The notes: a model not told the origin generated them from the sequence alone. Shown: positions 1 to 32,545, counted from the whole stretch's first letter. The stretch: DNA of 53,220 nt, filler included, from Jimgerdemannia flammicorona (GCA_003990765.1; 3 parts of 3 records of this genome joined end to end with filler, not necessarily neighbours in it), one strand, 5' to 3'. Numbers and translations: made by a program.

Positions 1-474
1 TTAAAAAAAAAAAATAAAAAAAATCTAAATTATATATTAAATATTAGATTATACTTATCTAGAGAGACTATTTCTATTAATTTATCTTTAATCTCCTTAG
101 TTATATCTTTCAACTTAATAAAACTAAACTTATAGTTCTTTTAGTAAATAACATCTTTAATAATTTTAAAAACTTATAGAAGATCTTATAATTATTAATA
201 CTATTTTTATTTATTAACTTTAAAATAAATAAGTAAAATAATATCAGTAGTACAGAAAGTAATGGTAGTAGCTATAGTAGTAAGCTCAAATAGAAGTTAC
301 ACTATTATAAGAAGTAGTAAGTGATAGTGTAATAGTGATCTCAGAATGATGATATCAGTATAAGAGACAGTCTTTTCTTATAAGTTATAAGATCAAAGCA
401 CAAGAAGATTATATAGTATAATCACTCAGACTATAAGATAAGCAATGATGACCAACTATAAGTATCTTAAGGAA

Positions 475-482
475 TATAAAAG
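475..482 (+). promoter_or_regulatory. Putative TATA box in LTR (TATAAAAG)
   Basis: TATAAAAG is present at the same position in all four LTR copies (475, 7681, ~25119, reverse at ~17214-17221), about 80 bp upstream of the LTR ORF start. Confidence 0.5.
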
Positions 483-560
483 AAGGATCAGAAAACTACA
501 GTAACAGTAATCAATAAGACCCACCAATACCAAAATAGCTCAAAGACTTATATAAACAAA

Positions 561-1385
561 ATACTTACTGCTTACCAAACCTCAAGGTTAAGGAATTATT
601 AAGGCCACTTAGTTAAAGAAATGATATTCCAAGACATCAGCAAAGCTATGAGGACCTACATAAGAAGAACTCCTAGTATTAATCTAGGTACTAGTGACCC
701 TTATCATTATATCCTTTACCACTATGAAATGGAAACAAGAATCACCATTGCCACCAAATATCTCCAAATGTGGCAGGAGTATGAAATAGAAAATCTTCTC
801 TGCTAGAAGTTCTCACAGACTAGCTCTCAAGAGTTATAAGATACCACTTCTATAGATATATATAAAGCAAGGACAGCTAAGAAGATCTATCAGATCTTCA
901 GGCATATACTATGGTCAATCTCCAACTTAGAGTATATTAGAGTCTCAGACTTCAGAGATCTATCAGTCCACTATATCAATATACTAGAAGCCAGGGTAGC
1001 AATAGAAGTCCAGTTCACTATCACTCTTGATAGTGATGAGGTAGAAGACTTCTGGCATCCCATCCTTCAGAACAACCTAGATCAATTCTTGCAAGGATTG
1101 ATCTCAGTATTCCAAAGCCCAAGTATCCAGATTAGACCTCCCCAAGACCTCACATTTGTTCTCTATTTTGTAGAAGAGAACCTCATAGATTGGAGAGCTC
1201 TTGATTTCTCTGCTAAATATAATGATATCATCAGTAATGATGTCATCCCATGTGATATATGTGAAACATGCAATCTATATAATGATGACAAGATAGATGA
1301 GACATTCATAGACCTCATCTCCTTTGAAAACATTCTGATCTCTAATAAGGATGAACCCCCCATGGTTCTGAACTTTTTGCTTTAA
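561..1385 (+). pseudogene. LTR-embedded ORF, copy 1 (275 codons; ATG mutated to ATA, in-frame stops)
   Basis: ORF-track pieces 621-806 and 1089-1385 are in one frame with 561; homologous to the copies at 13488, 17133(-) and 25206. Confidence 0.8.
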
Positions 1386-1874
1386 GTTATACTGAATTAT
1401 GCCAGCATTCTTTTCCTATATAACAGCTATTTCTCTACTGGCATTCTGATCTTATATAACTCAGAATTATTTTAGCACTATTTTCCTATATCACTGAAAT
1501 TATACCAGTATCCTGAACCTATGCAATCATCTGTACCAATACTAGAACTTGGTAGTTCTAGTATTTTATTTGGTTATTGGAATTTATATTTAGCTTTATA
1601 TCTTAGCAACCATTGAATTATATTTTGTATAAATATTCTTCTTATTTCCTCTGAAATAAAGTCAGTTCTAGTTCCAGTTTACTTACTCTCAATTCTATAT
1701 AAACAATTTAAGAAATAATAAGATAGTTTAAAGATAAGAAGTTTGAGAACTATAAGACCTTAAAAAGGCACTCCAATAAGAACTTGCTTATAATAAACTT
1801 GAGTTAGTCTAAGAGATATACCTTGAAGAGGATCTGATGTATTTGAAGGACTCAGAAACCACTATGTGATAACT

Positions 1875-1890
1875 TGGTACTCATTGGCTA
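1875..1890 (+). other. Putative primer-binding site
   Basis: TGGTACTCATTGGC begins 3 nt after the 5' LTR end; the TGG start is typical of a tRNA-CCA complement. Cognate tRNA not identified. Confidence 0.55.
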
Positions 1891-1927
1891 GTGATTCAAG
1901 GTGAATCTCTCACTTTCAAGCTAAAAA

Positions 1928-4900
1928 ATGAACAACTACCATAACAACTACTCTGACTACAAGAGTCACCCCTGTAAGAATTCAAGATAAGATAGAAATG
2001 TGTCTCTCTACATTCTATGGATATATTACTGAAGAGTCAATCCTGACCTTTATTGAAGACTTTGAACAATTCACTGCTATATGAGTCCTTGGTGTAGATG
2101 CACAATTTGCCCTTCTACTAGTCAGTCTCAGAGGACCCACTAGAGATAAGTTCAATATAGCCACTATTGCTGATAATGGTGTAGCCAAACTTGTCAACAT
2201 AAAGGCCTTTCTCAGAACAATATACTATACTGAAGAGATCAAGCAAGCTCTCAAGAATCAACTCAATACTATCTGCCAGAGACTCAGTGAAGATCCCAAC
2301 TCATTCTATACCCAAATCTGCTATCAAATTATCTTGGCTGGCTATAATGATGCCCTCAAGGAACAAATAGTAGATTCAACCTTTCTCAAAGGAGTTTACT
2401 CTGAAATTACCCTAGTAATCCGGTCTATCCCAGCTATACTGACTCTTGATTAGAAAGTGATCTTTATACAGAGATATTGGACTACCAGACATCTTGCTGA
2501 ATACTCAATAAAGAAAATAACTGGCATTAAGATAGAGCCATCAAAGCCAACCAGTATCATACCTGTCACAGTTGTAAACAGATAACCATCCCCACCTACC
2601 CCCAAGACAGCCAAAGCTGACCTAGTAGAGGAACTTGCCAAATAGTTTACTGAGATAACTATACACCTTAGTGATGTTGTTAGAGAAGTCTGAAGTATCA
2701 ACAGGAGACCAGTGCAGAGATTTGCAGCTACTATAGAAGAATAAAACATCATATACTTTAGATATAGAGAAGAAGACCACTATACAAAGAATTGTATGAC
2801 TGAAACAAGACACAAAGCTCAACCAAGCAATGCTAGTAGAACTAGAGAACAAACCAATATAGTAGTCATCAAGGAGATTGGTGATACTGATGATAAAGAA
2901 TACTATGAGAAGTCTAAATTCTATCCTGTTACTGAAGATACTAGAACTCAGTCCAAGCTCTATGATAAGAAGACCAACAGCAAGCCAGTTGGAAGACCAA
3001 AGAAGACCCTAACTGTCACTATTCAAAGCAAGACCCAACCCAAGGAGATTGATCAAGACATGGAGCTAGATGAAGCTACTTACCAAATTATTAAAGGCAC
3101 TACTCCAGTCTCAGGAGAAAGTAAAAGCAAGAAGGAACAGAAGCTGTACAAGACCAAGATCCACCAGTATGATATCTACAAGGATCTCAAGAAATAGAAG
3201 GTCAATACTACTTTTGGACAACTAGCCAAAGTCTCTGCCTTCAGACAGCAGTTGAGAGTAGGACTTGTAACAACTGCTAAAAATTAAGAGTATAAGATTG
3301 TAAAAGCTCACAATGCACAAGAAGAATCTGAAGACTCAGGCAAAGAATCTGAAGACCTATACAAGACATCAGCCTATACCCCATACCAGATTAAAGATTA
3401 TATCTTTGATGCTATCATTGATACTGGTGCTGGAGGATACCTTATGAGCAAGAAGACAATTGACCATCTAGGCTGGGATATTGAAGAGTCTACCAAGATA
3501 GTCTATATTACAGCAGATAGTATATGAGCTACCCTTCTTGGCAAAATCTGAGAAGTCTCCATCAAGATAGGAAGAGCTACTATCCTAGTAGATGTGATTG
3601 TTACAAGTACTACTAACTATAACATCCTTATTGACAATCAATGGCTTCACAAGACCAAGGCCATCATTGACCTCAATGTCTACAAAGGAGTTCTATCAGA
3701 TATGGAGGAAGAAGATAAAGAAGATACAGAAGTCTTCATATACTCAGTAAACAAGAATAAGAATAAGACACCCAAGCTCACAGATGAGCAGTGGTATAAC
3801 AAGATCATTGATGGCTATGTCCCACAAGAAAGATGTCCCCATGATACTAGGATATATCACTCTGAACACCTGAATGACTGCTGGTCCTATATAAGTGAAG
3901 TCAGGAAAATCTATCAATAGAAACATGAGCAAGAAGCTACCAAAGCAAAAAGAAAAGCTAAAGAAGATGACCAGTCCCCAGAGCTGCAAAATAACAGTGA
4001 TGATGAGAAGAAATGAGAACCAGACATTACTCTCAAGGTCAAAAAGTTTCACCCTGAAGCCAAGATTCCAGAATACAAGACTGAAGGAGCCATAGGAATA
4101 GACCTTGTCAGCATTCAAGATACTACCCTCAAACCACAGATCACTACCCTACTTGGCACTGGAATTGGAGTCAAGTTGTCAGAGAACTATACTGGAATTA
4201 TTAAGACCAGGAGCAGTCTGGCCAAAAGCAAAATCTCAGTTAAAGGAGGAGTAATTGACCCTAATTACACTGGTGAGATCTTCCTCATAGTCAGGAATCA
4301 CAACCCCACCACCCCATTTAAAGTCAAGAAGTATGATAGGATTGACCAGATGCTAATCCACAAAATCAAGAAGCCCAAAATCACTGAAGCCATCAAACTC
4401 ATCAAGACCAAAAGAGAAGAATAAGGTTTTGGATCTACTGGAAGAGGAGCCTATGCTACTACCAAGATTACTAAACTTGAGTATAAGAAAGATAGAGATC
4501 AGAATAAGCACACATATACTATTGGAGAAAACTTCTCTCTGGAAGAACAACTTCTCAAGATTCTATACCAGAATGAAGGAGTACTTACTACAGACTTCAG
4601 AGATATCTACAATCAAAAACCCAAGTACTATCATGAAGTTGATACTAGTGATACCAAGCCCATTTATCAGAAAGTCAGACCTATACTACCTACCTACAGA
4701 GAATGGCTATGAGCAGAACTCAAGGAAATAGAAGAGACCAGAATCATTAAACAAGCTATCAGTCCCTGGGCTTTACCTATTGTCCTTGCTCCAAAGAAAG
4801 AAAGCAAGCCTGGAGAGTTTATGTCAAAACTCTGCATTGACTACAGAAAGCTCAATACAATTATCAAGAAAGATAGACAGCTCTTATCAAATATTCAAGA

Positions 4901-7151
4901 AATCCTTACTACCCTTGGAAGTGAAGCCAAATACTACACCATCCTGAATCTGTTCTCAGACTTTCATCAGATTGGTCTCACTCAAGATGCCAGTGAGAAA
5001 TCAGCCTTCATCATATCTGATGCCACCTATATCTATCTACAAATGTCATTTGAAATGTGTAATGCCCCAGTAAGTTTTCAGCAAATAATAAATAGAGTCT
5101 TTAGCAATAAAATTGGAAAATAGCTCTTTGTTTATATTGATGATGTAATTATCTTCAGCAATACTATACAAGAACATGTCAACCATATACAACTAGCTCT
5201 CAAGAGACTCAAGGAGTATGGCCTCTATATCAAGCCCAAGAAGTACAAGTTTGTAGCTCAGGAAATCACCTACCTAGGACATCTCATCAACCAGACTAGA
5301 ATCCATACAGACTCTATAAAGATTGAGGCTGTTGCAGCCTACCTAAAACCCAGGACAACTACTGAAGTCCATGCCTTCCTTGGACTGGTCTCCTACTATA
5401 GAAGATTCATCAAAAGATACTCCAACATTACAACATCTATCTATGAGCTACTGAAGAAGGAAACCAATTTTGAATAAACCAAGGAATACTAAGAAATCTT
5501 CAATAAACTCAAGACTAGGTTGACCCAAGCACCCATCCTCAGAAGACCAGATTGGAACCTAGAGTTCATCCTGTAGATAGATGCAAGTACTTTAGGACTT
5601 AGAGCAGTCCTAGCTTAGAAGAAAGATAGATATAAATATGATATCTCCTATATAAGCTAAGGTACCCATGGAGCAGAACAGAACTATGAGTTATGTAAGC
5701 TTGAATACTTAGCAGTAGTTTGGATAGTAGACAAGTTCCACTGCTATCTAGCTAGAAAACACTTCACTATTCAAACAGACCATTCTGCTCTTGCCTGGCT
5801 ATTCCACACTCTGAACTCTAAAGAAATATATGCCAGATAGATCTACAGGCTGTAAGAATATGACTGTACTGTCAAGCTCCACTCAGGAAGAATCAATGCC
5901 AATGCTGATATACTCTCAAGGACATCTCAAAATATCTCCATCAAGACTATTCAACATGAATAAGGAGTTATACTATAGATTAATCAGCTACCTTGGGCAG
6001 CAGAAGATGCTCAATCACCTTGAACTCTAGACTATTACTATTATCAACTAGACTTGGAAACAGTTTGAACTAGACAATACCATACTTAGAAAAGGAGGAA
6101 AATTATAATACCTAAATACAAGAAGTATCAAGTAATGAAGGAAGTACACAAACAAGAACATCTAGGAGGAACCAATATATATAACAAGGCAAGAAGAACT
6201 ATATAGTGGCCCAAAATGGAAGAAGACCTACACCAATTTGTCAAAGAGTATGATAAGTGCCAAAAATAGAAATAAGATCAGCAAGACCAAGCACTTGGAT
6301 TATCAAGAATTGAGCCTATCTCCTTCTACTATATTGTAATAGATATCATTAGACCACTACTAGTGACACTATTAGGAAACTACTATATTATAGTTATTAT
6401 AGACCTCTTTATCAAATAGATAGAAGCAGGAGCATTATAAGAAGCCAATGCCCTCTCTATAGCCAACTTCCTGTATCAAGAAATCATCTGCTGCTACAAG
6501 ACACCAAAGCAAATCACTACAGACCATGATATAGAATTTATCAATAGATTCCATGAGATAATATATCAGAAATACAAGATTTAGCATATCAAGATCACTG
6601 CATACTATCCTCAAGAAAATAGACAGACAGAGAGAACCAACAAGACCCTTAAGAACATACTGGCAAAGATCTCAGACACATATGAGAATTGGGATAACTA
6701 CCTCCCAACTATCCTCTCTATCCTACAAAATATATGGTTATAAAGTATACACTTTACTCTAAGAGAACTGCTCTTCAGAGAAGAAGATTCTGATAGAACC
6801 TCAGTTACAAATCTAGACCTAACTTAAAGACAGATTGACTCAGAAATTCATAGACTACACCAAATCAGGAAGAAGGCTGAAGATTACATTATCAAGTCAC
6901 AAGTACTGACAAGGAAGAATACAGAAAAGAATTACAAAACCCTAGAACTCATCCAAATTGGAGAAAAGGTTCTATTGTATCAAAATATAATAGAAGTCTT
7001 ATGGTTGTAAAAACTGAAGCCCAAATAGGAAGGACCCTTCTATGTGCAAGATATTAAGAGAACTACCTTCTGGCTTAGAAAAAATTCAGAAACTATACTG
7101 CCTACCACAGTACATAGGAACAGACTCAAGAAGTATCATAAACCTATATAA
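1928..7151 (+). pseudogene. gag-pol of G1 (gag, aspartic protease, dUTPase, RT, RNase H, integrase), inactivated by many stops
   Basis: Protease AIIDTGAG (~3410); RT LCIDYRKLN (~4830) and FVYIDDVIIFS (~5130); RNase H QTDHSALAWL (~5775); integrase IDIIRPL, TTDHDIEF, QTERTNKTLK (6340-6650). Start coordinate approximate. Confidence 0.9.
4032..4442 (+). pseudogene. Trimeric dUTPase domain inside G1 pol (between protease and RT)
   Basis: All five dUTPase motifs are readable: AIGIDL, TRSSLA, GGVIDPNYTGEI, DRIDQML, RE(E*)GFGSTG. Confidence 0.92.
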
Positions 7152-7213
7152 GAGAAGCAAAATTTGATAACTACCTACAAGATTCTAGTCTGTGAATTAT
7201 AACAATATGTCTT

Positions 7214-7685
7214 ATGACCAGCAGGCTATCTGTCTGGACTATTCTCTAAGAGATACAGCACCAGCAACTACTTATCCATAAGACTTTTAAAGCCAGAGGA
7301 GTTTGAACCATCAACTAATTGGTCAAGATCAGAATCAGGCCCTTGCTCTATATGAAGGAAGTGACTCTTTACCATTATATCAAAATACAAAAAGAAGATG
7401 CTAGCCCATAAACACTACTTTTCAACCCCCTGCCAGAGGTTATGGGATCAGCAAATTTTTCAGAATTGGATCAATAAATAAGGATGTTTAAGAAGATCCT
7501 TATTTAGAAAGAAGATATAACAGTGATCTCAGAATGATGACATCAGTACAAAAGACAGCCTTTTCTTGCAAGCTATAAGATTAGAGTATAAGATCATATG
7601 GCATGACCACCCAGGCTATAAGATGAGTAATAATAACTAACTATGAGTCATTATGACCACAGTATGAGTATCTTGAGGATTATAA
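7214..7685 (+). pseudogene. Accessory ORF between pol and the 3' LTR, running into U3 (ORF-A)
   Basis: Frame reads ...LLIHKTFKARGV*TIN*LVKIRIRPLLYMKEVTL...PEVMGSANFSELDQ*IRMFKKILI..., with stops explicable as CGA/CAA/CAG->TGA/TAA/TAG. The same frame is conserved in the minus-strand copy at ~17217-17541. Boundaries approximate. Confidence 0.55.
7506..7515 (+). other. Polypurine tract
   Basis: AGAAAGAAGA immediately 5' of the 3' LTR; the minus-strand copy has AGGAGAAAGA at the equivalent site. Confidence 0.65.
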
Positions 7686-7733
7686 AAGAAGAATCAAGGA
7701 ACTGCAGTAGCAGCAACTAACAAGACCCACTAA

Positions 7734-10700
7734 AGGACTTCTTTTGCTCAAAACACTCAGAGCAAGCTAAGCTACACAGATATCCTTTTATGAAAAGCAA
7801 TATGTTTTCAAGTTTTCACTTTACCTATATGGGTATACTAGGTGCAATAGAAGTCTGGCAACAGTTCACTATAAGTTTCATTAAAATATGTCAAGTTTCT
7901 GTCAAATAGTGACTCAGGATTCATTAAGCTCAGAGTGCTTAGAGAGGAGGCCTGGCCTGGATCTCCCCAAGAGTTTTACAGCAATGGCAGGGGCCAGTGC
8001 TGCTGCTGGAGGGACAGGTGGTCAGCAGTGATCAGCTGGTATTGAAGGCTAGCATACAGTGATGGGGAATAGGAGGACTACTACTAGGCCCATAGGGGTA
8101 GAGTAGAGGAGATGTAGTATTGACAGAGAGAGGAGTCAGGTGACTGGTCAGATGGCAGGTCAGATTACTGCCAGGGGACATGGGTCTAGAGGTGGGATAT
8201 ATTCCTAGGGCTGGGCTGGTGGCTGGGCCAGTGGCTGGGGGTGGGATAGCTGGTGGGCTTCCTGGGGCTGGTGGAGTGACTGCTAGTGTCTCAGAAAGTA
8301 AGGAGAAGGTGACAATGGTAGCTGGCTTTGGAGAACTAGTGGTGTATCCTTTTTTCTACAAATTGGTATCAACATGGGCGATCTTGGTGAACTTTCTGAG
8401 ACTGGACTTGTCTGCCAGAGAGGTTTTGAGGCTAGTGAGAGAGAAGATTGCTGGTGCAGAGTCCCTGAAGTTTATTCTGTCAGTAGAGGCAGTGGAGATT
8501 GGCTTTGTAGAGAAGGAGGAGATGATGAAGGCCCTGGAGAAAGGGTTGGTAGTCAAGGGCATCAAGATTGGAATAGTGAGGTGTCTGAGGTAAGATCTAC
8601 ATACAGTACAACTGGTAGTAGAAGAGCTGCCAACTCTTGGAAGACAGGAGATGAAGAGGATAGTGGCAGAGATACTGGTAGGATTTGGTAAGATGGTCAA
8701 CTTTAGATTTATGTTCTGGGAGGGGACTAAGCTGAGGAATGGCAACTGTGAGATCATGGTGAGGCTGGAGGGCAAGGAGGCCACAGGGCTAGGGAGGGAC
8801 TGGCCAGAGGTGATTATGTTGGAAAATAGGAGTGTAAGGTATAGAGAAGGAAAGAATCTGAACAGGAAGAGGAGGAATTTTTGCTTGCTCTAAAGGAGAG
8901 AGAGACTGCAAAGGAACTATATAAGAGGAGATGGGAGGAGTTTGTCAAGGACTGGATCTGGATTCTGACAGATGGGAGGAGGAAGAGATAGCAGAAGGTG
9001 AACTGAGAGTACCTGCAGACAGTCCTCTAAAGTATAAGAATAGAGAAGGAAGTGTGGGTGGAAATAGCCAAGAGTCAGATAGAGGAGATAGAGACAGCCA
9101 AGGTGTCCTTTTCACAACTAGGGGGTGTGGAGAATTCTACTCATATACCAGTTAAGGGAAAGTGGACTGATAAGGAGGAGATAGGTAAAGAGGGCTTTGA
9201 GGATGTTGTTGAGATAGTACCAGAGATCCAGTTGGAGGATGTTTGTATGGCAGGAGCAGCAAATGTTCATTGGAAATATCTAGAGACTGGCAAGATAGTG
9301 TGGCTGGAGAAGGATACTGAGGAGGATGATCTGGTAGATGTAGCCTCTGATGTATCAGCAGACAGAGAGATGCTTTAGGAGCTAATTACTGCTGATGATT
9401 GGTATTAGGTAGTGCTTGAAGAGCTGGTAGAGAAGGATATCAAAGAAGTGGATATATTCAATGAATCTCAGAAGACTTGGAAAAGATTCCTCAATATTGT
9501 ATTGCAGGAGCCAAAACTGATGATGGCAATAGTGGTAGCATTTCTAGATGATGAAGGATATGTGGTTGATGAGGTCCAGATGGCTGATATCAGGAAAGTA
9601 GTAGCTGAGAGAGTAGATATCTTTTGTGGTGGTATGGATGGTACCTATATCTGGAGAACCATTTGTGAAGAATGAAAGGAAATTATCCTTAGTAAGACTG
9701 AGAAAGTGGTAGCAATTCCGGCAGAGCTTTAAACATTCTTCTCAATGATGATGAACAATCTGCATATATTATCACTAAATATCAATGGTCTACATGATGG
9801 AGTGAAGAGGAGGTAGTTATTTTATTGACTAAAGGTCAGGAGGTATAATGTGGTATTTCTTCAGGATATTTGAGCCTATAGTGAGCAGGATTATATAGAA
9901 TAGAGCAAAGAATGGTATGGTAGTATAGAGTAGAATGAGCAGGTAGAGATCTTGATTGGTTTGAAGAGAGGTGAGCTGGTGGAGATTGCAGTTTATAGTA
10001 ATTGATTGGTTTGGGGGAGATTAAAAAGAGGAGCTGGCAATGGGCTTATTATAGGCTCTGCTTACTTACCAGTAGTTGGCAGAGAGCAAAACCAATGGGT
10101 GGAGGGCTGGCTGGCTTGGGAAGGCCAAGAAGGAATTAGGCTAGACATTCTGGGGGGGGGGATTTTAATATGGTACATAACAGAACACTGGATAGATCTG
10201 ATAGTAAGGTGGGTATGGCTGTATCAGTCAGACTCTCACAATGGAGTGGGATATGAGATTAGTTGATGGAGTATAGCAATATCAAGAAGAGTAACCAGGG
10301 CTCTTTACTAGGTGGCATTCAGTTGGTGAGGACTTGGTGGGAACAAGGATTGATTGGATTCTGGTGGCAGAATGCTAGGGTAATGTTAGAAATACAGTAG
10401 TGTCCTTGGTCAGACCACTGGGGAGTTGAGGTGCAGGGGAGGTTTTAGGCAATAGGTGGAGGTAGAGGTCAATGGAAACTTAATGTGGCTCTGCTCAAAA
10501 GGCAGGCTGAGCAGGAATAGTTTGTGGCAATTGCAAGGCAGGAAGTATTGCAGTGAAAGAACAGTAGACAGACAATAGAGCAGTGGTGGAGTAAATTTAA
10601 ACATTTAGCAGGTACTTACTGGTGTGATGTTGGGGAGGTAGCAGGGAGAGAGCAGAAGGATAGAGAGAGGAGAGTGGAGTGGAGACTCTAATAGCAGCTG

Positions 10701-13440
10701 AGGCTGTTGGAAGGAGTGGAGTTATCAGGAGAGTGGTGCTGCCAGTTGACCAAGGAGATGGTTGAGTTGAAATTGAATTTGAGGGCAGCTAAAGGTAGGA
10801 TAATAGATAGTCTGTTAGCAAGATTGTAGGCAAGGCACTTAGAGGAAGGAGAGTAGCCCACTAAATATTTATCAGGAATCTTGAAAGCCTGGAGAGTGCA
10901 GCACAGCTGGGCATCAGTTTTGCAGGAGGATGGGGTTAAGGTTACTGACATTACTGAGATACTTGGTGAGATATCTGGCCAATAGCATGCTCTCTGGCAG
11001 GATGAGGGAGGGCTAGTAGAGAGTGAGGATTCACAGGGGGATAATGATGACTTGGTTGACAGCTGGCCAGTGGTGGCAGTACCTAAGATAGATAGAGCAG
11101 TGATGGGTATGGTAGCTCTTGAAGAGATATTGGAGGTACTGAGGAATATGTAGGCTGGCTTATCACCAGGGGAGGATGGGCTGTCTTGAGAGTTCTAGAG
11201 GAAATTCTGAGCTGAGTTTAGTGAATGGCTAGTCAAGATAGTGAACTTTGTGTTGAGAGAAGATTGCTGGATCAGTAATAGTTCTTTGGGGTTAGTCTCC
11301 CTGTTATATAAGGAGAAAGGAGACCAACATGTATAGAGGAACTGGTGGTCAATTATGTTACTGAATGTGGACAGGAAGCTGGTGTCCAAAATTTTGGCAA
11401 AAAGGATGCAGAGGTGGATTGGCCAATTGGTGGGTGAGGATCAGCAAGGTTTCATTAAGGAGAGGCAGATTCAGGATAGTACTGTCTGAGTGCAAAATGT
11501 TTTGGAGAGCTGTAGAAGTCAACAAATAGATGAACAGATGGTCTTTCTGGATCAAGAAAAGATGTATGACAGAGTAAGATAGAACTACTTGGAGGCAGTA
11601 CTATGGAGAGTTGGGTTCAGTATGATAGAGGCTCAAACCTTGATGGGCCTGGTACATGAGTGTTGAGTGGCAGTACTGATGAATAGATGGTGTGGCCCAG
11701 AGTTTATCTTGAGAAGAGGTGTACTACAGGGGGATTCTCTTTCACCCCTGCTTTATATTTTGTCCTTAGAGTCTTTATTGGTCTGGCTGAAGAAGAGGCT
11801 GACTGGATTATAGATGGAAGATGTGGTCTGGAAGTTGGGGACCTTTGCTGATGATATGGTAGTTGGGTTAGGTTACATGGAGAATTTTGAAAGCCTACAG
11901 GAAGGGGTTGGACAATATGAGAGGCTGACAGGGGTGAAATTGAATTGGGGCAAGTGTGAGATCATGGAACTAGGGGCTGGACTTAGAGAGAATAGATGAT
12001 TTGGATGAACAGTTGGTACAGAAGAGGTAGTCCAATACTTTGGTATCTGGTTTTCAATATATGAAATAGTGCTATCAAAGGAGTGGTAGTGTAGTATGAT
12101 ATAGAAGTAGGAGAGTGCTTTGACAGGATGGTCAGAGAGGGACTTTTCCTTAGTTGGTAGGGTTGTAGTACTAAATATATACTGGTTGCCTAAGCTGTGG
12201 TATCTTGGGTACCATTTGGACTTCCCAGATTAGGTGATATAGCATCTGAAGAAGGTAGTGGAAGGATGGCTGTGGCAAAGAAGATGGCCATAGATTAGTT
12301 GGGAGATAGTAGTAATGAGGACATTGGATGGTGGTCTGGGGCTGGTGGACTTTCAGAGGTGGTTGAAGGCACTTCAAGACTGGTGGAGTTATTGATTGAC
12401 TGAACTAGGTATAGATGATTGGGGCAGACTGGCTATGGACAATTGAGAGGTCAGGTTCTACCCATGTGGTGAGGCAAGGAAGAATATGTGGAGGTTGTTT
12501 CAGATGAGAAGGATCAGTAGATTATATTACAAGGGGTTCTAGTGGGGCATTGTAGAGGCCTGACTGGTGATGAGACTTACTGGTATAGAGCTAGATAATG
12601 AGAAGGACCCAGAGCAGAAATGGTGGTGACTAGGAGATCTTTGTATTGATGGCCACCAGTTGGCAGAATACTCTCTGTCTGGAGCAATAGAATGGATCAG
12701 GACCAGCCTGCTAGAGAGGTGGCCAGTTGGTTGGTAGAAGGTTGGGTTTGGTAAAGATTGGAAGTAGGGTCCAATATAGTAATTAGGGGACTCCTTACAT
12801 AAGGTGGTTCTACCAAAGTTTTGGGTAATATAGTGGAGATTCTTGAGGAGAAATATAATATTGGAGTACTGGACAGAATGGATGGATGCAGAAGATATAA
12901 GAGAATGTGAGTGGTGTTGTGAGGTGGATAGCAGTATAGTGCAGATATCAGAATATATATTGGTTGCTTGTCTGGGGGTTGAAGAGTATTGGCAGACATT
13001 GGAAGGATATTGGGATCATGAGGGTAGATGACTAAGGGACTCTACTGGTCAGGTGATCAAGCAGTGACTGATGGGAGAGACTGGGGACATGTGGGGGGAC
13101 TTGGGCCATATCCTTAGCATCTGGGTCCTGATGGTAGTACATTGGAGATAGGTATTCAAGAAAGATCTCTGGATGGGAATTGGTGAATTGGTAGAATGGT
13201 GGAGATGGTTACTTCTGGAAGTGGTGCAAGGGTGGTGGTTTCAGGGAAGAGACACCAGCTAGGAGCCATAAGGAAGGTACAGGACATTGTGCAGAGGAGT
13301 CACAGGCACCTAGTACTAAATAACAAAGGGGTACAGTGGAGAGAAGGTGTGAGCTGATGGGCCCTGCTCTGTACTTTAGATATATAGTAATTTTCAGATG
13401 AAGTTATTATTATATTAGATATTTGGATAAAAAAAAAAAA
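7734..13440 (+). mobile_element. Full-length L1/Tx1-type non-LTR retrotransposon (family LA), decayed; ORF1 ~7900-9732, ORF2 9745-~13356
   Basis: Poly(A) at 13429-13440; TSD CAAGACCCACTAA (7721-7733) / CAAAACCCACTAA (13441-13453); APE motifs SLNINGL, GGDFN, WSDH; RT motifs FLDQEK.YDRV, QGDSLSP, FADDMVV; C-terminal CEWC...C zinc-knuckle remnant. Confidence 0.92.
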
Positions 13441-14815
13441 CAAAACCCACTAATCCCAAAATAGCTCAAAGACTTACCACAAACAAAATGCCTGCTGCTT
13501 GCCAAACCTCAAGGTCAAGGAATCACCAAGGCCACTCAGTTGAAGAAAGAATATTCCAAGACATCAGAAGAGCCATGAGGACTCATATAAGAAGGACTCC
13601 TAGTGTCAACCTGGATACTAGTGACCCTTATTATTATATCTACTATGAAATGGAAACAAGGATCACCATTGCCACCAAATGCTTCCAAATGTGGCAGGAG
13701 TATGAAATAGGAAACCTCCTCTATCAGGAGTTTCCACAGGCCAGCTCTTAAGAGTTATAAGATACCACTCTCATGGATATATGTGAAGTAAGGACAGTTA
13801 AGAAGATCTATCAGATCTTCAGGCATGCACCATAGTTGATTTCTAACTTAGAGTATATTAGAGTCTCAGACTTCAGAGACCTGTCAGCCTGCTGTATCAA
13901 TATACTAGAAGCTAGAGTAGTAACAGAAGCCCAGTCTACTATCACCCTTGATAGTGATGAGATAGAAGACTTCTGGCATCTCATTCTTCAGGACAACTCA
14001 GATCAATTCCTGTAAGGATTGATCTCAGTATTCCAAGACCTAAGCATCCAGGTTAGACCTCTCCAAGACCCCACATTTTTTCTCTATTTTGTAGAAGAGA
14101 ACCTCATAGATTGGAGAGCCCCCAATTTCTCCACTGAATATAATGATATCATTGGCAATGACATCATCCCATACAACATATGCAAAATATGTGACCTATA
14201 TGATGACAATGAGATAGACAAGATATTCATGGACCTCATCTCTTTTGAAGACATCCTGACCTCTAATGAGGATGAACCCCCTATGGTTCTGAACTTTTTG
14301 CTCTAAGTTATACTGAATTATGCCAGCATCCTTTTTCTGTGTAATAACTATTCCTCTATCAGCATTCTGATCTTGTGTAACTCAGAATTATTCCAGCACC
14401 ATTTTCCTGTATTACTGAAATTATATCAATATCCTGAATCTATGCAACTATCTGTGCCAATACTGGAACTTGGCAGTTCTAGCATTTTATTTGGTTATTG
14501 GAATTTATATTTAGCTTTATATCTTAGCAACCATTGAATTATATTTTATATAAATACCCTTCTTATTTCTTCTGAAATAAAGTCAGTTCTAGTTCCAGTT
14601 CACTTATTCTCAATTCCATACAAGCAATCTAAGAGATAACAAGACAGTTTAAAGATAAGAAACAAGACAGTTTAAAGATAAGAAGTTTGAGGACTATAAG
14701 ACCTTAAGAAGGCACTCCAATAAGAACTTGCTTATAACAAACTTAAGTTAGTTTAAGAGATATATCTTGAAGAGGATCTGATGTATTTGAAGGACTCAGC
14801 GACTACTCCATGACA
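13441..14815 (+). repeat. Distal part of the G1 3' LTR (proximal part 7516-7733)
   Basis: Resumes the LTR sequence exactly where it was interrupted at 7733. Confidence 0.92.
13488..14306 (+). pseudogene. LTR-embedded ORF, copy 2 (273 codons)
   Basis: ORF pieces 13488-13751 and 14019-14306 are in the same frame; MPAACQTSRSRN...EPPMVLNFLL*. Confidence 0.82.
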
Positions 14816-15834: not shown

Positions 15835-17542
15835 TGTCACATAGTGGTCACTGAGTCCTTCAAATATGTCAGATTCTCTTCAAGGTATATCTTTTAGACT
15901 AACTCAAGTTTGTTATAAGCAAGTTCTTATTAGAGTGTCTTCTCAAGGTCTTATAGTCCTGAAACTTCTTATCTTTAACTATCTTGTTATCTCTTAGATT
16001 GCTTGTAAGAAAGTGTGTATATTGCACTGAGTTGACTGAGTTTATTTTAGAAGAAATAAGAGGGGTATTTATACAAAATATAATTCAATAGTTGCTAAGA
16101 TATAAAGCTAAATATAAATTCCAATAATTAAAATAAAATGCCAGAACAGAAAAAACTGCTAAGTTCCAGGGTCAGCACTGATGGTTGTATAGGTTCAGGA
16201 TACTGGTATAATTTGGTGTCACATCAAAATACTGGTGCTGGCATTATTTGGTGTTATATCAAAATACTGGTACTGGCATTATTCAGTGTTATATCAAAAT
16301 ACCAGTACTGGCATTACTCAGTATAACCAAGGGACTTAGAGCAGAATGTTCAAGACTATAGGGGCTTTGTTATCAGAGGTCAGGATGTCTTCAAAGAAGA
16401 TGAGGTCTACAAATTCATCATCATCACATAGGTCATGCAGGATGATGTCATCGTCAATGACATCATTATATTTGGTGACAGGAAGGAGGTCTAGAGCTCT
16501 CCAGTCTATGAGGTTCTCTTCTACAAAATAGGGAACAAATGTAGGGTCTTGGAGAGGTCTAACCTGGATGCTTGGATCTTGGAATACTGAGATCAATCCT
16601 TACAGGAATTGGTCTGGGTTGTCCTGAAGAATAGGATGTCAGAAGTCTTCTACTTCATCACTATTGAGGGTGATAGTAGACTGGGCTTCTGTAGCCACCC
16701 TGGCTTCTAGTGCATTAATATGGCAGAATAACAGATCTCTGAAATCTGAGACTCTAACATACTCCAAGTTGGGGATTGACTATAGTGCATGCTTGAAGAT
16801 CTGATGGATCTTCTTAGCCATCCTTGCCTCACATATATCCATGGGAGTGACATCTTGTAGCTCTTAAGGGCTGGCCTGTGGGAACTTCTGGCAGAGGAGG
16901 TTTCCTATCTCATACTCCTGCCACATTTGGAGGTATTCAGTAGCAATAGAGATCCTTATTTCCATTTTACAGTAGTAGAGGATATAGTGATAAAGGTCAC
17001 CAGTACCCAGGTTGACACTAGGAGTCCTTCTTGAGCTGATTCTCATGACTCTTCTGATGTCTTGGAACATCCTCTCTTCAACTGAGATACCTTGGTAGTT
17101 CCTTGACCTTGAGGTTTGGTGAGCAGCAGGCATTTTGTTTGTAGTAAGTCTTTGAGATATTTTGAAATTTAGTGAGTCTTATTGGTTGCTGCTACTGTGG
17201 TTCCTTAATCCTTCTTTTATATTCCTTAGGATGCTTGTACTGTGATCACAATGACTCACAGTTGGTCATCATTGCTCATCTCATATACCATATGATCTTC
17301 ATATGCTTCAATCTAGTGGCTTGCAAAGAAAGACTGTCTTCTGTACTGATGTTATCATTCTGGGGTCACTATTACATCTTTCTCCTGAATAAGGATCTTC
17401 TCAAGCATCCTTATTCATTGGTCTAGCCCTGAAAAATTTGCTGATCCCATAACTTCTAGCAAGGGGTTGAAAAGTGGTATTTATGGGCTAGTATCTTCCC
17501 TTTGTATTTTGGTATGATGGTGAAGAGTCACTCTCTTCATAT
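15835..17542 (-). mobile_element. Truncated G1-family element: 3' LTR (15835-17376) plus ~165 bp of internal 3' sequence
   Basis: Reverse-complement LTR with intact TG (17376) and CA (15835) ends; 17377-17542 matches the reverse complement of ~7350-7515, including the PPT. Confidence 0.9.
16336..17133 (-). pseudogene. LTR-embedded ORF, copy 3 (266 codons)
   Basis: ORF pieces 16864-17133 and 16336-16596 are in the same frame. Confidence 0.82.
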
Positions 17543-17677: not shown

Positions 17678-17777
17678 NNNNNNNNNNNNNNNNNNNNNNN
17701 NNNNNNNNNNNNNNNNNNNNNTTAATTAATTAANNNNNNNNNNNNNNNNNNNNNNNNNNNNNNNNNNNNNNNNNNNN
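17678..17777. other. Artificial contig linker (N44-TTAATTAATTAA-N44)
   Basis: Exactly 100 bp; the 12-mer places stops in all six frames. Confidence 0.98.
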
Positions 17778-17837: not shown

Positions 17838-18152
17838 ATGACGAGCCAAGACGACGGCGACGATATCGAAATCACTTCACACCCGAAATCTTTTTCGCCA
17901 CATCTCCAAGACTCGTCCCCAATCCCAATCGAAATCCCTCCTACGACTCCATATTTGTTGCCACCACACCCCTCAACAGATGACGTTATCAACGTCAGTG
18001 CGGTGGTGGATACAATCACCGTAGACACTGGTAGCGGTACTCAGATCACGTCCCAAAGCGAACTACCAACACGTACCGTTTGGCCTGTAGGCCTTGGTGC
18101 CAAATTCCACAAGGCGTTTAGCCGGAAGACCAGATTCGAGCGCAACAGGTGA
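17838..18152 (+). CDS. Possible 5' part of a host gene or pseudogene, Pro/Ser/Thr-rich, unknown function
   Basis: 104-aa ORF in CpG-retaining sequence with plausible composition and candidate splice signals downstream; no recognisable domain. Confidence 0.3.
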   Translation: MTSQDDGDDIEITSHPKSFSPHLQDSSPIPIEIPPTTPYLLPPHPSTDDVINVSAVVDTITVDTGSGTQITSQSELPTRTVWPVGLGAKFHKAFSRKTRFERNR

Positions 18153-19202
18153 AAATGACGGCCCCGCCGTTTTTCGTGGTAGCGTAAGGGATGTTGAGCA
18201 AAAACAATACTGTGTGGGGTTTGTGGCACGGTCGCCGGTGGCGATTGCACCTATGTATGGTCCATGATCTCTATCTATCAAGTGTATTTTTGGCTTATCA
18301 GTTTCTAATCAGATACATACCTGTTGGTATACCGCGTGTTCTCACTTTCAGACTTTCCGTTTCTGAGACACATTATCTAAAGTGACCCTTGCAGGGGATA
18401 CGGTAGTGGGGAGGAGCTCGAGTAGGATAGCCTGGCGAAGCGGAGAAGAGTGGCATTGTTGAGACGTGTGGTGAATGAAGAAAGTTGGGGGAGATGAGAA
18501 GCTAAGGACCCATCAACGTAAATCCTCTCCACTTGCCAATTTCCAAACCCTCTGGAGTCAGGACTTGACTTCACTAACTGATTGCAAAACCGCGGACACA
18601 CTAAATTCTAATACTGCTTAAGGATTTCTGGCTAATGATCCCGTTGGCTTCGAAATGAAAACCGATAGCGACTGTAGTACGCAAACTCTCCCCTGATGCA
18701 CACACCATTCCCCATCAACTCTCCTCGTCGCCAAATCTTCCACGACCACAAGCCTGCCGCTCCAACCATATACTTTCCCCACGAGCCCCTGCGTATATCG
18801 ACCTTTGGGATCATGAGAATCGTCAGGGACAGCGACTTCCGGCTGAGCCCGATCCAGAAAGGTTTAGGCAAGTGAGCAGGAAAGATTAAAGCCGTGACCT
18901 GGATTTATTCTTTCTTTTGGGGGGCGGGTGCTTGTAAATACAATATCGTAATGTTAGAGTATCCCCGTAGGATCAGATCAGGAGGCCAGCCACCAACAGT
19001 ATTAATATGCAAATGGCATAGGCACGAAGACTCGGAACATTAATAAACTAAAAGCATGTACATCGGCAATTTATTTACATAAACTCTGAGATCTACCCCA
19101 CACAGGAAACACGACACCCATCCCACCGAACGTAAGCCAGTAGGACGCCCAAAGCACGGGACCTCAGATGCGGTCGAAAAGTAGTCATAAGCGAAATATT
19201 GA

Positions 19203-19372
19203 CAAGAAATGGAGAATGCAAAGAGAAGAGAAATGCTAGAGGATTACAAGAAATGTTGAGAATGCAAAGAGAAGAAAAATGCTAGAGGATTAGAAGAAAT
19301 GTTGAGAATGCAAAGGGAAGAAAATGCTAGAGGATTAGAAGAAATGTTGAGAAGAAAAATGCTAGAATATTA
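19203..19372. repeat. ~45-46-bp purine-rich minisatellite, about 3.7 units
   Basis: Unit AAGAAATGTTGAGAATGCAAAGAGAAGAAAAATGCTAGAGGATTA(G/C); only one unit is present in the paralogous flank at ~22223-22266. Confidence 0.85.
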
Positions 19373-19434
19373 GGGAAACGCCGTGCCAATTGCTACATTT
19401 ATCGGGGGGTTCGCCCATATGCAAATCATCAGTG

Positions 19435-20112
19435 CTACTCCATCACGAGCTGTTCATCTTCAAGAAACCTAAACTCGCGAGCGCGCAAGGAGTTTAGGAC
19501 TTTTACTAACGAGGTCGCGTCTTTCAGGACATGGCTTCGGACGCCCTGTGCGCGAAGTATCTCGGCCACGTTCCAGACACCGATGTCAGCAGAGACCACG
19601 AAACAGGTCTTCCCGAGGAATTGCTTGGTGACTAACCAGCGCGTGGCGTGCAGATTCATCTCGTAATCTGCGGCATCCGCGTATGGGCGGCTCGTATGAA
19701 TGACGTGGATCTTCTTCAAGAATATTTCGTGAATTTTGGGGCCGGCTGGCCCGTAAAACGCGACCGTCTCAAAGATTGTTGGGTCGGGATAGGTAGCGCA
19801 AATTTTAACACAATCACCACGGTTGTCACCATCAATCAGGAAGACAATCGGCGTCTGGCGGTTGAGGTCGACTAATGTGGTGGTGGTGGTGGTGACGGCG
19901 GCGGTGGTGGCGGCAGCGGTAGCGGCGGTAGCGATGGTAGCGGCGGCGGAGGCGGCGACGGCGGCGGCGGCAGCGGTAGCAGTGGCGGCGGCGGTGACGG
20001 CAGCGGCGGTGGCGGCAGGTGCTTCTTGTCGAAACACTTGGGCCAATGTCCTCTGGCGTGGCCTGTGGTTGGGCTGGAGCTTCAAAGCAACCTTGGTGTG
20101 TTTCGAGTCCAT
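19435..20112 (-). CDS. Intronless NYN/PIN-fold putative ribonuclease with N-terminal poly-Ala/Thr tract (225 aa from ATG at 20112)
   Basis: IVFLIDGDN ... AFYG ... ADAADYEM ... FVVSADIG ... AEILRAQG matches the NYN/LabA-DUF88-like PIN pattern (DxxN, central D, SxD); frame is open. Confidence 0.72.
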   Translation of the reverse strand: MDSKHTKVALKLQPNHRPRQRTLAQVFRQEAPAATAAAVTAAATATAAAAAVAASAAATIATAATAAATTAAVTTTTTTLVDLNRQTPIVFLIDGDNRGDCVKICATYPDPTIFETVAFYGPAGPKIHEIFLKKIHVIHTSRPYADAADYEMNLHATRWLVTKQFLGKTCFVVSADIGVWNVAEILRAQGVRSHVLKDATSLVKVLNSLRAREFRFLEDEQLVME

Positions 20113-22322: not shown

Positions 22323-22709
22323 GCACGGACCGTAAAAAGCGACGGCCTCGAAAATCGGCGTGATATGCAGAAGAATTTCGTAGTCGGCAGCATCCGGGTA
22401 CGGACGTAGCGTTTGGACGACATGCATCCTACTCCAAAAGGCCTCCATCCTCTGTGAAGCGTATGGACCGTAAAACGCTAGTCTCGAAGCTCGGATTGGC
22501 ATGTCTAGCACAATGTCCGTGGTTGTCGCTATCGATAATAAAGAGGATGGGCTTCCTGCGGTCGAGTTTGAAAAATTGGGCGGCGGTGGCGGCAGCGGCG
22601 GCGGCGGTTGGTAATGGCCTATGGCATGGCCTGTGGTTGGGATGGGACTTTTAAGACAAACTGGCGTTACCTTATCCCAAACAACTAAAGATAAGCTGGC
22701 GCTTTTCAT
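22323..22709 (-). pseudogene. Frameshifted, truncated paralog of the NYN/PIN-like gene
   Basis: An alternative frame gives KLDRRKPILFIIDSDNHGHC (vs DLNRQTPIVFLIDGDNRGDC), then AFYGP...RPYPDAADYEI; flank 22072-22322 duplicates 19045-19434. Confidence 0.78.
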
Positions 22710-24297: not shown

Positions 24298-24806
24298 TAG
24301 TATTCCAAATAAGATAATCTGGATCAATTCAAAGTAGCTTATAAGTGATATAATTTGATATATTAATATCATTGTTTTGATTTTCAAATTAGACAATTAA
24401 ATATTTATATCAATAACTTGATAAAATATCATCTAATTTTAATGATTATAGTATTATTTAAAAGCTCTTAATAAGGTCTTTCTAATGATATTAATAATAT
24501 TGAAATTAGATAATATATTGCTAAGTTATTAAGAAAAATATCCTATTTGCTAATTGTGAAAATATTGATAACTTAGTAATATATTATTCAATTTTAATAT
24601 TCTTGATATTATTAGAAAGATCTCTTTAAGGACTTTCAAATGATACTATATATAATCATTAAAATTAGATAATTTTTCATTAAGTTATTAATATAAAATT
24701 TAATTATTTAATTTGGAAATTAAAACAATAATATTGATATATCAAATTATACTATCTACATATAAGCTATTTTGAATTGATTCGGATTGGCTTATTTAGA
24801 GCACTA
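24298..24806. mobile_element. AT-rich foldback/MITE-like element with ~235-bp inverted arms
   Basis: The left arm TAGTATTCCAAATAAGATAATCTGGATCAATTCAAAGTAGCTTATA... matches the reverse complement of the right end ...TATAAGCTATTTTGAATTGATTCGGATTGGCTTATTTAGAGCACTA along nearly the whole length. Confidence 0.75.
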
Positions 24807-25205
24807 CTATCTATAATATAAATATATATACTATAATTCTAATATAGGTAAATATCTATAAAGTTTAGAGTAAAATACTATAGTTTATACTTTATAATAT
24901 TTATAAGTATAAATTATATATAACTAAAATATAGATAAATATATATATCTACTAGCTATTTATTATAATAGTGACTCCAGAATAATGACATCAGCATAGG
25001 AGACAGCCTTTCCTTGCAAGCCACCAGATCAGAGTACAAGAAGATTATATGGCATATGAGATGAGTAATGATGACCAACTGTGAGTTATTGTGACCACAG
25101 CATAAGTATTTTGAGGAATATAAAAGAAGGATCAAGGAACTACAGTAGCAGCAATTAACAAGACTCATCAATCCCAAAATAGCTCAAAGACTTACTACAA
25201 ATGAA

Positions 25206-26063
25206 ATGCCTGCTGCCCACCAAACCTCAAGGTCAAGGAACTACCAAGATACCTCAGTCAAAGAAAGGATATTCCAAGACATTAGAAGAGCTATAAGGAC
25301 CTGCTCAAGAAGAACTCCTAGTATCAACCTGGATACTGGTGACCCTTATTACTATATTCTCTACTGCTATAAAATGGAAACTAGGATCACTATTGCTACC
25401 GAATACCTCCAAATATGGCAGAAGTATGAAATAGGAAACCTCCTCTGCCAGGAGTTCCTATAGGCCAGCACTCAAGAGCTACAAGATACTACTTCCATAG
25501 ATATATGCGAAATGAAGATAGCTAAAAATATTCATCAGATCTTCAGACATACACCATAATTGATCCCCAACTTGGAATATGTTAGAGTCTCAGATTTCAG
25601 AGACCTATCATCTCACCATATTAATGCACTAGAAGTCAGGGTGGCTATAGAAGTCCAGTCCACTATCACCCTCAATAGTGATGAAGTAGAAGACTTCTGG
25701 CATCCTATCCTCCAGGACAACTCAGACCAATTCCTACAAGGATTGATCTCAGTATTCTAAGGCCCAAGTATCCAGGTTAGACCTCTCCAAGACCCCACAT
25801 TTGTCCCCTATTTTGTGGAAGAGAACCTCATAGACTGGAGAGCTCCAGATCTCCTTATTTCTACTGCTACTGAATGTGATGACATCATTAGTGATGACGT
25901 CATCCTGCACAACTTTGACATATGTAAAATGCACGACGAAGTATGCAAAGTATGCAAAATATACAACCTATACAACAAATTTACAGACCTCATCTCCTTT
26001 GAAGATATCCTGACCTCTGATGACAAGGATGAAGCCCCCATGATCCTGAACATTCTGCTCTAA
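25206..26063 (+). pseudogene. LTR-embedded ORF, copy 4 (286 codons)
   Basis: Three ORF-track pieces (25206, 25560, 25815) are all in one frame. Confidence 0.82.
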
Positions 26064-26087
26064 GTCCCTTGTTATATTATACTGAAT

Positions 26088-26175
26088 AATGCCAGTACTG
26101 GCATTCTGAGGTGATATGAAATTATTTCAGCACTAGTATTTTGAGGTAATACTGAATAATGCCAGCATCAGTATT
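26088..26175. repeat. 35-bp-period array with 18-bp palindromic core inside the LTR
   Basis: Perfect palindrome AATGCCAGTACTGGCATT at 26088-26105, degenerate copies at 26123 and 26158; same array at 16228/16263/16298. Confidence 0.8.
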
Positions 26176-26550
26176 CTGATGTAAAACTGAATTATACTAG
26201 CATTCTGAACCTGTACAACTATCAGTACCAACCCTGGAACTTAGTAGTTTTAGTTATTGAAATTTATGTTTAGCTTTATATCTTAGCAACCATTGAATTA
26301 TATTTTGTATAAATACTCCTTTTATTTCCTCTGAAATAAAGTCAGTCTTCTTAGTATAATATATACACTTCCTTATAAGCAATCTAAGAGATAACAAGAC
26401 AGTTAAAGATAAGAAGTTTGAGGACTATAAAACCTTGAGAAGGCACTCCAATAAGAACTTGCTTATAACAAACTTGAGTTAGTCTAAGAGATACATTTTG
26501 AAGAGAATCTGGCATATTTGAAGGACTCAGCAACTACTATGTAACATTAT

Positions 26551-30512: not shown

Positions 30513-30598
30513 ACGTCCCTTTTCACCAGTAACATTCGGGTGACACAAGACTCAGACAACACTTTTTACAACGTTTTTGGTGTCCGACGACTAATAAC

Positions 30599-32514: not shown

Positions 32515-32545
32515 ATTGGGGTCTCTTCTACAATATCTACTCAAT

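Follow-up and report, generated by a model that had tools for sequence, protein, structure and literature searches.

Each of the four copies of a ~1.54 kb long terminal repeat (LTR) found in a 53,220-nt stretch of Jimgerdemannia flammicorona DNA (the window, filler included) carries the same reading frame of 265–285 codons. This frame is very probably a genuine accessory gene, a third ORF borne in the U3 region of the LTR, whose window copies are dead, whose relatives remain open elsewhere, and of which less decayed copies are apparently transcribed. Taken as a whole, the observations are best explained, as we consider likely, by a U3 accessory gene of a dUTPase-bearing, non-chromodomain Ty3/gypsy element.

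RESULTS

The repeat is the LTR of a Ty3/gypsy element

A repeat with TG..CA ends emerged when the four copies were aligned (Table 1). Copy c1 is followed by ACTTGGTAC.., in which a TGG.. starting two bases past the LTR is the whole of the primer binding site (PBS)-like reading, and then by gag-pol; copy c3 is preceded by a pol end and a polypurine tract (PPT), and the pol end and PPT region of element 1 align with copy c3 and with an undecayed metagenomic contig, L001 (see below). On these grounds the repeat is a Ty3/gypsy LTR, as proposed in the preliminary description of this DNA, and the pol order together with the direct TG..CA LTRs, PBS-like site and PPT are those of Ty3/gypsy elements (Metaviridae). 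Pfam analysis of the gag-pol protein (P0011) identified an aspartyl protease (residues 505–605), a dUTPase (729–857, E 2e-25), RVT_1 (984–1137), RT_RNaseH (1203–1330), Integrase_H2C2 (1413–1468) and rve (1489–1579), with the dUTPase domain mapping to ~4056–4442 of the window, between protease and RT. No chromodomain was matched by Pfam at E ≤ 0.001 in P0011 or in the intact integrase ORF of L001. The element is a non-chromodomain Ty3/gypsy element with the order PR-dUTPase-RT-RNaseH-INT; on this Pfam search, a place in the chromovirus branch of Ty3/gypsy was not supported.

A single insertion accounts for c1 and c2, its two LTRs: their ORFs are separated by 123 transitions and just 3 transversions, a pattern expected of such a pair. 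A 4-bp duplication (ATAG/ACAG) fits if one C>T change is allowed. Copy c2 lacks the LTR start because a nested insertion of ~5.7 kb, separate from the gene, splits the 3′ LTR of element 1. Copy c4 is apparently a solo LTR; directly upstream of it lies an extremely AT-rich tract (24001–24960, GC 0.16), and TACTAGCTA is present on both of its flanks.

The nested insertion belongs to a family with a very strong G-over-C skew (0.43–0.53 per kb, sense strand), present as three + strand copies (7732–13444, 28300–35500 and 40000–46000). The middle copy, a sister of the nested one, bears RVT_1 on the + strand (34301–34936, E 4e-19), and the first, with its A12 end and 7-bp duplication, resembles a non-LTR retrotransposon. 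The least decayed copy (GC 0.52–0.58, CpG observed/expected 0.4) shows the skew too, which suggests that it is an original trait of the family. Other gypsy remnants in the window are a second, distant one at 45695–48552 (−), which also matches the dUTPase part (48552–48163), and integrase/RNase H fragments of other gypsy families at 27416–28244 (+) and 39033–40008 (−), 33–51% identical to the element pol. The strings N44-TTAATTAATTAA-N44 at 17678–17777 and 35453–35552 were read as assembly gaps, the first of which interrupts the minus-strand element bearing c3, within its internal region.

Table 1. Positions of the LTR copies, reading frames and associated features in the window
Feature	Position	Strand	Description
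LTR copy c1, 5′ LTR of element 1	328..1871	+	1544 bp, TGTAATAG to TGTGATA; from the alignment of the four copies and end motifs
TATA-like box 1	471..485	+	GGAATATAAAAGAAG; U3, 86 nt upstream of the c1 ORF start; candidate ORF promoter
ORF copy c1	561..1385	+	825 nt, 274 codons + stop; start decayed to ATA; internal stops 600, 804, 837
TATA box 2 and AATAAA	1627..1660	+	GTATAAATA at 1627–1635, AATAAA at 1655–1660; motifs conserved in copies
Internal region of element 1	1872..7516	+	one gag-pol frame: PR, dUTPase, RT, RNase H, integrase
3′ LTR of element 1, first 215 bp	7517..7731	+	interrupted by the nested insertion
Nested insertion, G-rich family	7732..13444	+	A12 end; flanking duplicate ACCCACT at 7725–7731 and 13445–13451
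LTR copy c2, rest of element-1 3′ LTR	13452..14815	+	
ORF copy c2	13488..14306	+	819 nt, 272 codons + stop; ATG intact; internal stops 13749, 13758, 13833, 14013
LTR copy c3, 3′ LTR of a minus-strand element	15835..17376	−	internal part meets gap 17678–17777
35-bp tandem repeat, c3	16201..16316	−	3.3 units; just past the ORF stop, U3; candidate enhancer
ORF copy c3	16336..17133	−	798 nt, 265 codons + stop; internal stops 16866, 16782, 16641, 16602
LTR copy c4	24964..26546	+	AT-rich surroundings; TATA box 1 25115–25129, TATA box 2 26307–26315, AATAAA 26335–26340
ORF copy c4	25206..26063	+	858 nt, 285 codons + stop; internal stops 25461, 25557, 25758
35-bp tandem repeat, c4	26079..26192	+	3.3 units; past the ORF stop

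Four copies share one frame

The preliminary description had placed the same ORF, in one shared frame, in all four LTR copies, and both points held: all four lengths are multiples of three (Table 1), and the intact relative P0006 matched each copy over its full length, in a single frame and a single tblastn HSP (60–67% identity, E 1e-104 to 1e-115). Frame 0 contains 3, 4, 4 and 3 internal stops in c1 to c4, versus 13–32 when the same stretches are read in either of the other frames. These 14 stops occupy 9 alignment columns, each being one C>T or G>A step from a CAA, CAG or TGG of another copy; their attribution to C-to-T decay thus stood for CAA, CAG and TGG (14 of 14), and failed for CGA, from which none was derived. 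The closer relatives (P0005–P0010 and P0013) mostly carry Q or W in the stop columns, and the distant ones are variable there. With 1.1–1.5 stops per 100 codons, the frame is no denser in stops than the element's own gag-pol (41 within its first 1777 codons).

Indel phase, named as a check in the preliminary description, was scored on a MAFFT alignment of the four LTRs. The gap events within the frame measure 6, 12, 6, 6, 12, 42, 3 and 6 nt, all eight multiples of three (chance about 1.5e-4 at one in three each), compared with 7 of 21 elsewhere in the LTR, a comparison weakened on the 5′ side by the non-homology of copy c2 there.

Decay of the window copies and signals of selection

CpG observed/expected was 0.00–0.03 in nearly all transposon-derived 2-kb bins versus 0.98–1.04 in a gene island at 18001–24000, which points to a repeat-targeted C-to-T hypermutation, either RIP-like or methylation-driven. 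All four window copies are dead, their 3–4 stops each being the product of this transition-driven, CpG-erasing decay. The synonymous share of changes among them was 0.34–0.50, versus a neutral expectation for transitions of 0.33–0.38; since the substitutions look like neutral post-insertion decay, the window copies are uninformative on selection. They also often carry Cys, His or Tyr where relatives carry Arg, and the Cys-containing tail described earlier turned out to be an artefact of CpG decay (Arg to Cys/His/Tyr), because the intact relatives have Arg at those positions.

Transversions were also counted. By codon position, the transversion columns numbered 14/4/11, a weak skew. Between lineages, 0.019–0.029 transversions per site were counted in the ORF, about three-fold fewer than in the adjacent downstream non-coding U3 (0.072–0.081); the non-coding 5′ part of U3, at 0.008–0.018, lies below the frame's own value. 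The case for selection on the frame would accordingly be built from four points read off the sequences: the phase of the indels, the frames that stay open in diverged relatives, conservation in blocks, and the lower number of transversions relative to the adjacent non-coding U3.

Open relatives and an undecayed integrase-PPT-LTR-ATG layout

With the four window translations as the query (X at each stop), a profile search returned six database proteins, HMMER run exhaustively over 1.84 billion representatives gave six matches of which five were new, and a third search added one more. The resulting 12 relatives (P0005–P0010 and P0013–P0018) are about 90–340 aa long, lie on contigs of 600–1625 nt and are ~20–79% identical to P0006; several are open over their full length, in a sample drawn from called proteins and hence biased toward open frames. 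P0006 itself, at 271 aa, has no interruption between its MPAAR.. start and its ..ILNFLL end. P0014 and P0015, 47% and 40% identical to it, both have an MPxxR start, so that at 40–47% identity the start codon is conserved and the frame open; P0015 (342 aa) matches profile positions 11–275 and also has the near-terminal LNF motif. Frames of 247–342 codons remain open in the diverged relatives. P0016 is clearly related (E 9e-14) and P0017 marginally (E 6e-4), and P0010 and P0014 are among the relatives shortened or deviating at the end.

Conservation across the family is blockwise (W.EYEI; AKKIHQIFRH.P; WNP.LQDNPDQ.LQGL; PYF..E...I.WR), and the conserved core is followed by a variable acidic tail that contains DLISF and P..LNFLL.

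A metagenome scan detected one locus, L001, containing the first 40 codons of the ORF; no member of the family was detected in the viral contigs scanned. L001 contains, in order, an open integrase ORF (47–1420), a spacer of ~300 nt, AGGAGGAAGA, the LTR start TGTAATGGTGACC at 1738 and an ATG at 1989, with the PPT followed by the LTR start (TGTAATGG) and the ATG 251 nt into the LTR. Its ORF, separate from pol and in a different frame, is 88% identical to P0006 across the 40 codons up to the contig end. The integrase-PPT-LTR-ATG layout seen in the window thus recurs in one undecayed contig.

Putative signals around the frame

The ATG lies 233–251 nt past the LTR start. A GGAATATAAA(A/G)GAAGG block, TATA-like box 1, precedes it by 83–88 nt and is nearly invariant in the five sequences compared (c1, c3, c4, the start of the element-1 3′ LTR, with one A>T, and L001), with exact pattern matches in c1, c3 and c4. 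Between this box and the start codon there is no ATG in three of the four sequences examined, including the undecayed L001, which has none in the 83 nt after the TATA-like block versus 10 in the 168 nt before it.

Downstream, GTATAAATA (TATA box 2) lies ~240 nt past the stop codon and AATAAA 27 nt further, a spacing that would put AATAAA at the expected transcription start. We infer that these are the genomic promoter and the poly(A) signal, together marking the U3/R boundary. As both follow the stop codon, the whole ORF would belong to U3, and the earlier statement that the frame lies wholly inside the LTR, here between the LTR start and TATA box 2/AATAAA, was confirmed. Just past the stop, the 35-bp tandem repeats contain a 14-bp palindrome (TGCCAGTACTGGCA) that is perfect in c4 only (26090–26103) and has 1–3 mismatches elsewhere, with one in the palindrome-like core of c3 (16300–16313); it is a weak lead. 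Near LTR position 50, a run of pyrimidines precedes an AG.

Contigs of probable RNA cover the LTR

Two public runs from the same organism (X1 and X2) contain parts of the window, and their contigs were compared with it. Both appear to behave as RNA, a status guessed from software; their contigs contain six GT..AG joints in a neighbouring gene (21092–22160). Contigs 80–90% like copy c4 cover the LTR; most of their differences from c4 are T>C or A>G, which marks them as products of less decayed copies. At the c4 stop 25461 they read C (TAG to CAG; 835 of 835 depth in X1 and 383.8 of 383.8 in X2), and at the stop 25557 they read G at 25558 and 25559 (TAA to TGG), with 835 of 835 at both positions in X1 and 5.45 of 16.7 and 16.7 of 16.7, respectively, in X2. 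Sense codons were thus found at two of the three premature stops of c4, in rows that cover 25461 and 25557 and leave out 25758 as well as parts of the LTR tail; the in-frame indels among these rows are −1/+1 pairs. RNA coverage, another of the checks named beforehand, therefore came out positive, with contigs (RNA by software guess) over the LTR, and the source organism appears to transcribe less decayed copies, in which both of these stops are sense codons. Because U3 is also part of the 3′ end of the genomic RNA, such coverage shows neither a separate mRNA nor translation.

The neighbouring gene (20768–22160, +) is spliced, the contigs skipping GT..AG introns of 76–248 nt with joints at 21092–21258, 21313–21481, 21508–21585/21636, 21684–21933 and 22080–22160; Pfam assigned no family to the ORFs tried near it. 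Two paralogous ORFs at 19435–20190 (−) and 22287–22712 (−) share the motifs P.LF.ID.DN.G.C and RPY.DAADYE, one of them has a long Ala/Thr-rich run, and neither matched Pfam. Links between 19689 and 22521 and between 19917 and 22588 in the contigs probably reflect collapse of the paralogues during assembly.

The product is an orphan protein with a basic N-terminus and an acidic tail

The protein of ~270 residues is an orphan family. Its first 60 residues carry a net charge of +8 and its last 90 one of about −17 (pI 4.5), in agreement with the basic N-terminus and acidic variable tail described earlier, and no signal or membrane segment is visible in the product. An AF2 model built with 15 sequences reached a mean pLDDT of 53 and a pTM of 0.46 (pLDDT 40 in an earlier model with 10 sequences), with helices at residues 14–33 and 100–160 (pLDDT 70–92) and a tail below 50; a homodimer prediction returned a score of 0.00 and no verdict.

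Pfam, searched to E ≤ 1, gave no family at its cut-off in any of the 15 members, and the family profile had no match among PDB sequences at E ≤ 10. Fold searches with the model (mean pLDDT 53) gave best Foldseek E-values of 1.2 against PDB and 0.14 against BFVD and a best VIA Z of 4.0; about 10 of 50 VIA rows were winged-helix regulators at a noise-level Z of about 3, and the Foldseek (PDB, BFVD) and VIA searches yielded no DNA-binding fold. The ESM Atlas gave no lead (best feature score 0.83, best TM 0.33). The structure check proposed for the consensus (AF2 and Foldseek) thus returned nothing above noise, agreeing with the absence of a named family. Two Pfam candidates were rejected: HECT (PF00632), matched in one of 15 members (P0002, residues 169–225, E 0.001, 19.2 bits versus a cut-off of 23.9), and ATG5_HBR, matched in four of 15 at E ≥ 0.028, far below cut-off. 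Sequence similarity to Sag, Nef or Bet/Tas was likewise not detected (Pfam, 15 members; PDB sequences), and no longer protein holding the domain was found at 600–2000 residues, nor at about 500–600 residues, a range covered by one search. The open relatives, the L001 layout and the lack of a Pfam, PDB-sequence or fold match together support the earlier view of an accessory gene outside any named family.

DISCUSSION

A working model of the U3-borne gene

We propose that the PPT came to lie upstream of an ORF at the 3′ end of the element, by which the ORF would have been absorbed into U3; the unusual length of the 1.54 kb LTR would follow from this. Being wholly inside U3 and copied by reverse transcription, the ORF is present at both ends of the element and kept by solo LTRs. 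For its expression, TATA-like box 1 and the ATG-free leader may start an mRNA of ~1.1–1.2 kb that would end at the LTR's own AATAAA, about 270 nt past the stop codon, and TATA box 2, 27 nt before AATAAA, would start the genomic RNA. Each LTR would then be a gene complete in itself. In this model TATA boxes, poly(A) signal and start are motif readings, and we rate the chances of expression from such an own promoter as even.

As to function, the basic N-terminal ~60 residues could serve nuclear or nucleic-acid targeting, the helical core binding, and the acidic, probably disordered C-terminal ~90 residues, with DLISF and the terminal L-N-F/I-L-L, could be a recruitment or activation module. The protein might then be a nuclear transactivator-type regulator or adaptor that recruits host machinery, like foamy-virus Tas or HTLV Tax. 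This reading, drawn from charge and from short motifs, is a tentative one, to which we give roughly one chance in three. Still more doubtful is its extension, that every LTR, solo ones included, is an autonomous gene (TATA box, ATG-free leader, ORF of ~270 codons and the LTR's own poly(A) signal) whose transactivator-like product regulates through that LTR's enhancer repeats. If true, a fungus would harbour a 'complex' retrotransposon that has acquired a Tas/Tax-like feedback loop independently of retroviruses, and whose solo LTRs scatter copies of the regulator gene through the genome.

Alternative explanations

About as likely as the regulator role is that the same U3 gene encodes a host-defence antagonist or a trafficking adaptor, like Nef or Bet, perhaps by way of a subgenomic RNA that starts at the genomic promoter and is spliced; on its own this reading is possible and less than probable. 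An antagonist would suit a host that wipes CpG from its repeats (observed/expected 0.00 versus about 1.0 in the gene island) and in which the c1/c2 pair has diverged almost wholly by transitions, and the element already encodes one anti-uracil function, the dUTPase; yet no similarity to known antagonists was detected with Pfam, PDB sequences or fold searches. For an adaptor, the acidic cluster and the L-I-S-F-E motif bear a possible likeness to clathrin-box/acidic-cluster sorting signals. The pyrimidine tract and AG near LTR position 50 offer a candidate acceptor for the spliced RNA, but several ATGs lie between it and the start codon, and no splice joint into the LTR was seen, in contigs bearing on the solo LTR only.

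It is improbable that TATA box 1 is instead the promoter of the genomic RNA, which would place the ORF in a very long R (about 1.15 kb), as the first ORF of that RNA rather than a U3 gene. The conservation of the box, the ATG-free leader after it and an X2 contig (26254–26513) that crosses TATA box 2 into U5 would agree with this, but the AATAAA in such a 5′ R, 1.15 kb from the cap, would terminate the RNA ahead of gag, and the 27-nt spacing between TATA box 2 and AATAAA suits the usual design with the signal in U3. The summed contig depth in X1 was also higher over R-U5 (5020) than over the ORF (286–1221), though depth is unfit to rank the parts.

Less probable again is a transduced fragment of a host gene, carried in the LTR as a passenger without benefit to the element. 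The weak HECT match to P0002 would be its trace, but this falls short of the cut-off and is confined to a single member, the domain was found in no protein of 600–2000 residues, the relatives found are short (about 90–340 aa, on contigs of 600–1625 nt), and start codon and open frame persist at 40–47% identity. That the frame is non-coding, and arose by chance or as a side effect of constraint on the U3 DNA, is scarcely credible, for although the 5′ non-coding U3 is even more conserved in transversions than the frame, the frame has exclusively in-phase indels, stops that are few and all decay-derived, and long open counterparts in diverged relatives.

Comparison with known systems

In mouse mammary tumour virus (MMTV), sag is a complete frame of ~300 codons inside U3, present in both LTRs, and the LTR is unusually long. 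The gene preferred here, an accessory gene in U3, resembles it in all three respects, a complete U3 frame, its presence in both LTRs and a long LTR, but shows no sequence or Pfam relation to it; its product is acidic with a basic N-terminus and no visible signal or membrane segment, and it resides in a Ty3/gypsy retrotransposon without env, in a fungus-like host genome. The foamy-virus bel/tas/bet genes are accessory genes 3′ of pol that reach into U3 and have their own internal promoter, and Tas, of ~300 residues, has an acidic C-terminal activation domain. They are the nearest functional analogy to the regulator model, and differ in that homology was not detected, that the promoter here is a motif reading and that the ORF sits entirely within the LTR rather than straddling the LTR boundary. 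HIV/SIV nef lies at the 3′ end, overlaps U3 in part and depends on spliced RNA; its product is an adaptor acting via acidic-cluster and leucine motifs; the likeness is that of a 3′ accessory gene at U3, and the differences are the partial overlap, the spliced RNA and the lack of detected sequence or fold similarity (model pLDDT 53).

Among Ty3/gypsy elements, extra ORFs beside gag-pol are described, in the portions of two papers available to us, as env-like in plant Athila/Tat elements, in bdelloid rotifers and as fungal 'add. ORF', with function unknown (PMC2864245, PMC5408684). The present ORF likewise stands beside gag-pol without an assigned function, but those are internal and this one lies behind the PPT, inside the LTR (same portions of PMC2864245 and PMC5408684). 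According to the available part of PMC2864245, PosPlaTy3-5 of Postia placenta has a dUTPase between PR and RT, and dUTPase-bearing gypsy elements occur in basidiomycetes and Tuber. They share the order PR-dUTPase-RT with element 1, but were surveyed as chromodomain-containing, whereas none was detected here, and the same part of that survey mentions no LTR-borne ORF (PMC2864245). Together with the short GT..AG introns and a loss of CpG confined to repeats, the dUTPase-bearing gypsy element suggests that the host is a fungus. A full-text literature search covering journals outside subscription returned LTR-borne ORFs for MMTV and foamy viruses, and none for a fungal LTR retrotransposon. With U3 genes known in MMTV and, in part, in lentiviruses and foamy viruses, and extra Ty3/gypsy ORFs known internally, what appears to be new, on that search, is the location in a fungal LTR.

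Significance

LTRs are normally deemed non-coding and masked ahead of gene calling, which may explain why just 12 relatives were found among billions of predicted proteins. The finding calls for caution in transposon annotation and in LTR-based ages, the latter because coding constraint has shaped part of the LTR. In addition, it would establish an orphan protein family, with self-activation, host-defence evasion and targeting as candidate roles, would make solo LTRs possible protein-coding loci, and would extend the sag/nef/bel-like design from a few complex retroviruses to the mobile elements of fungi.
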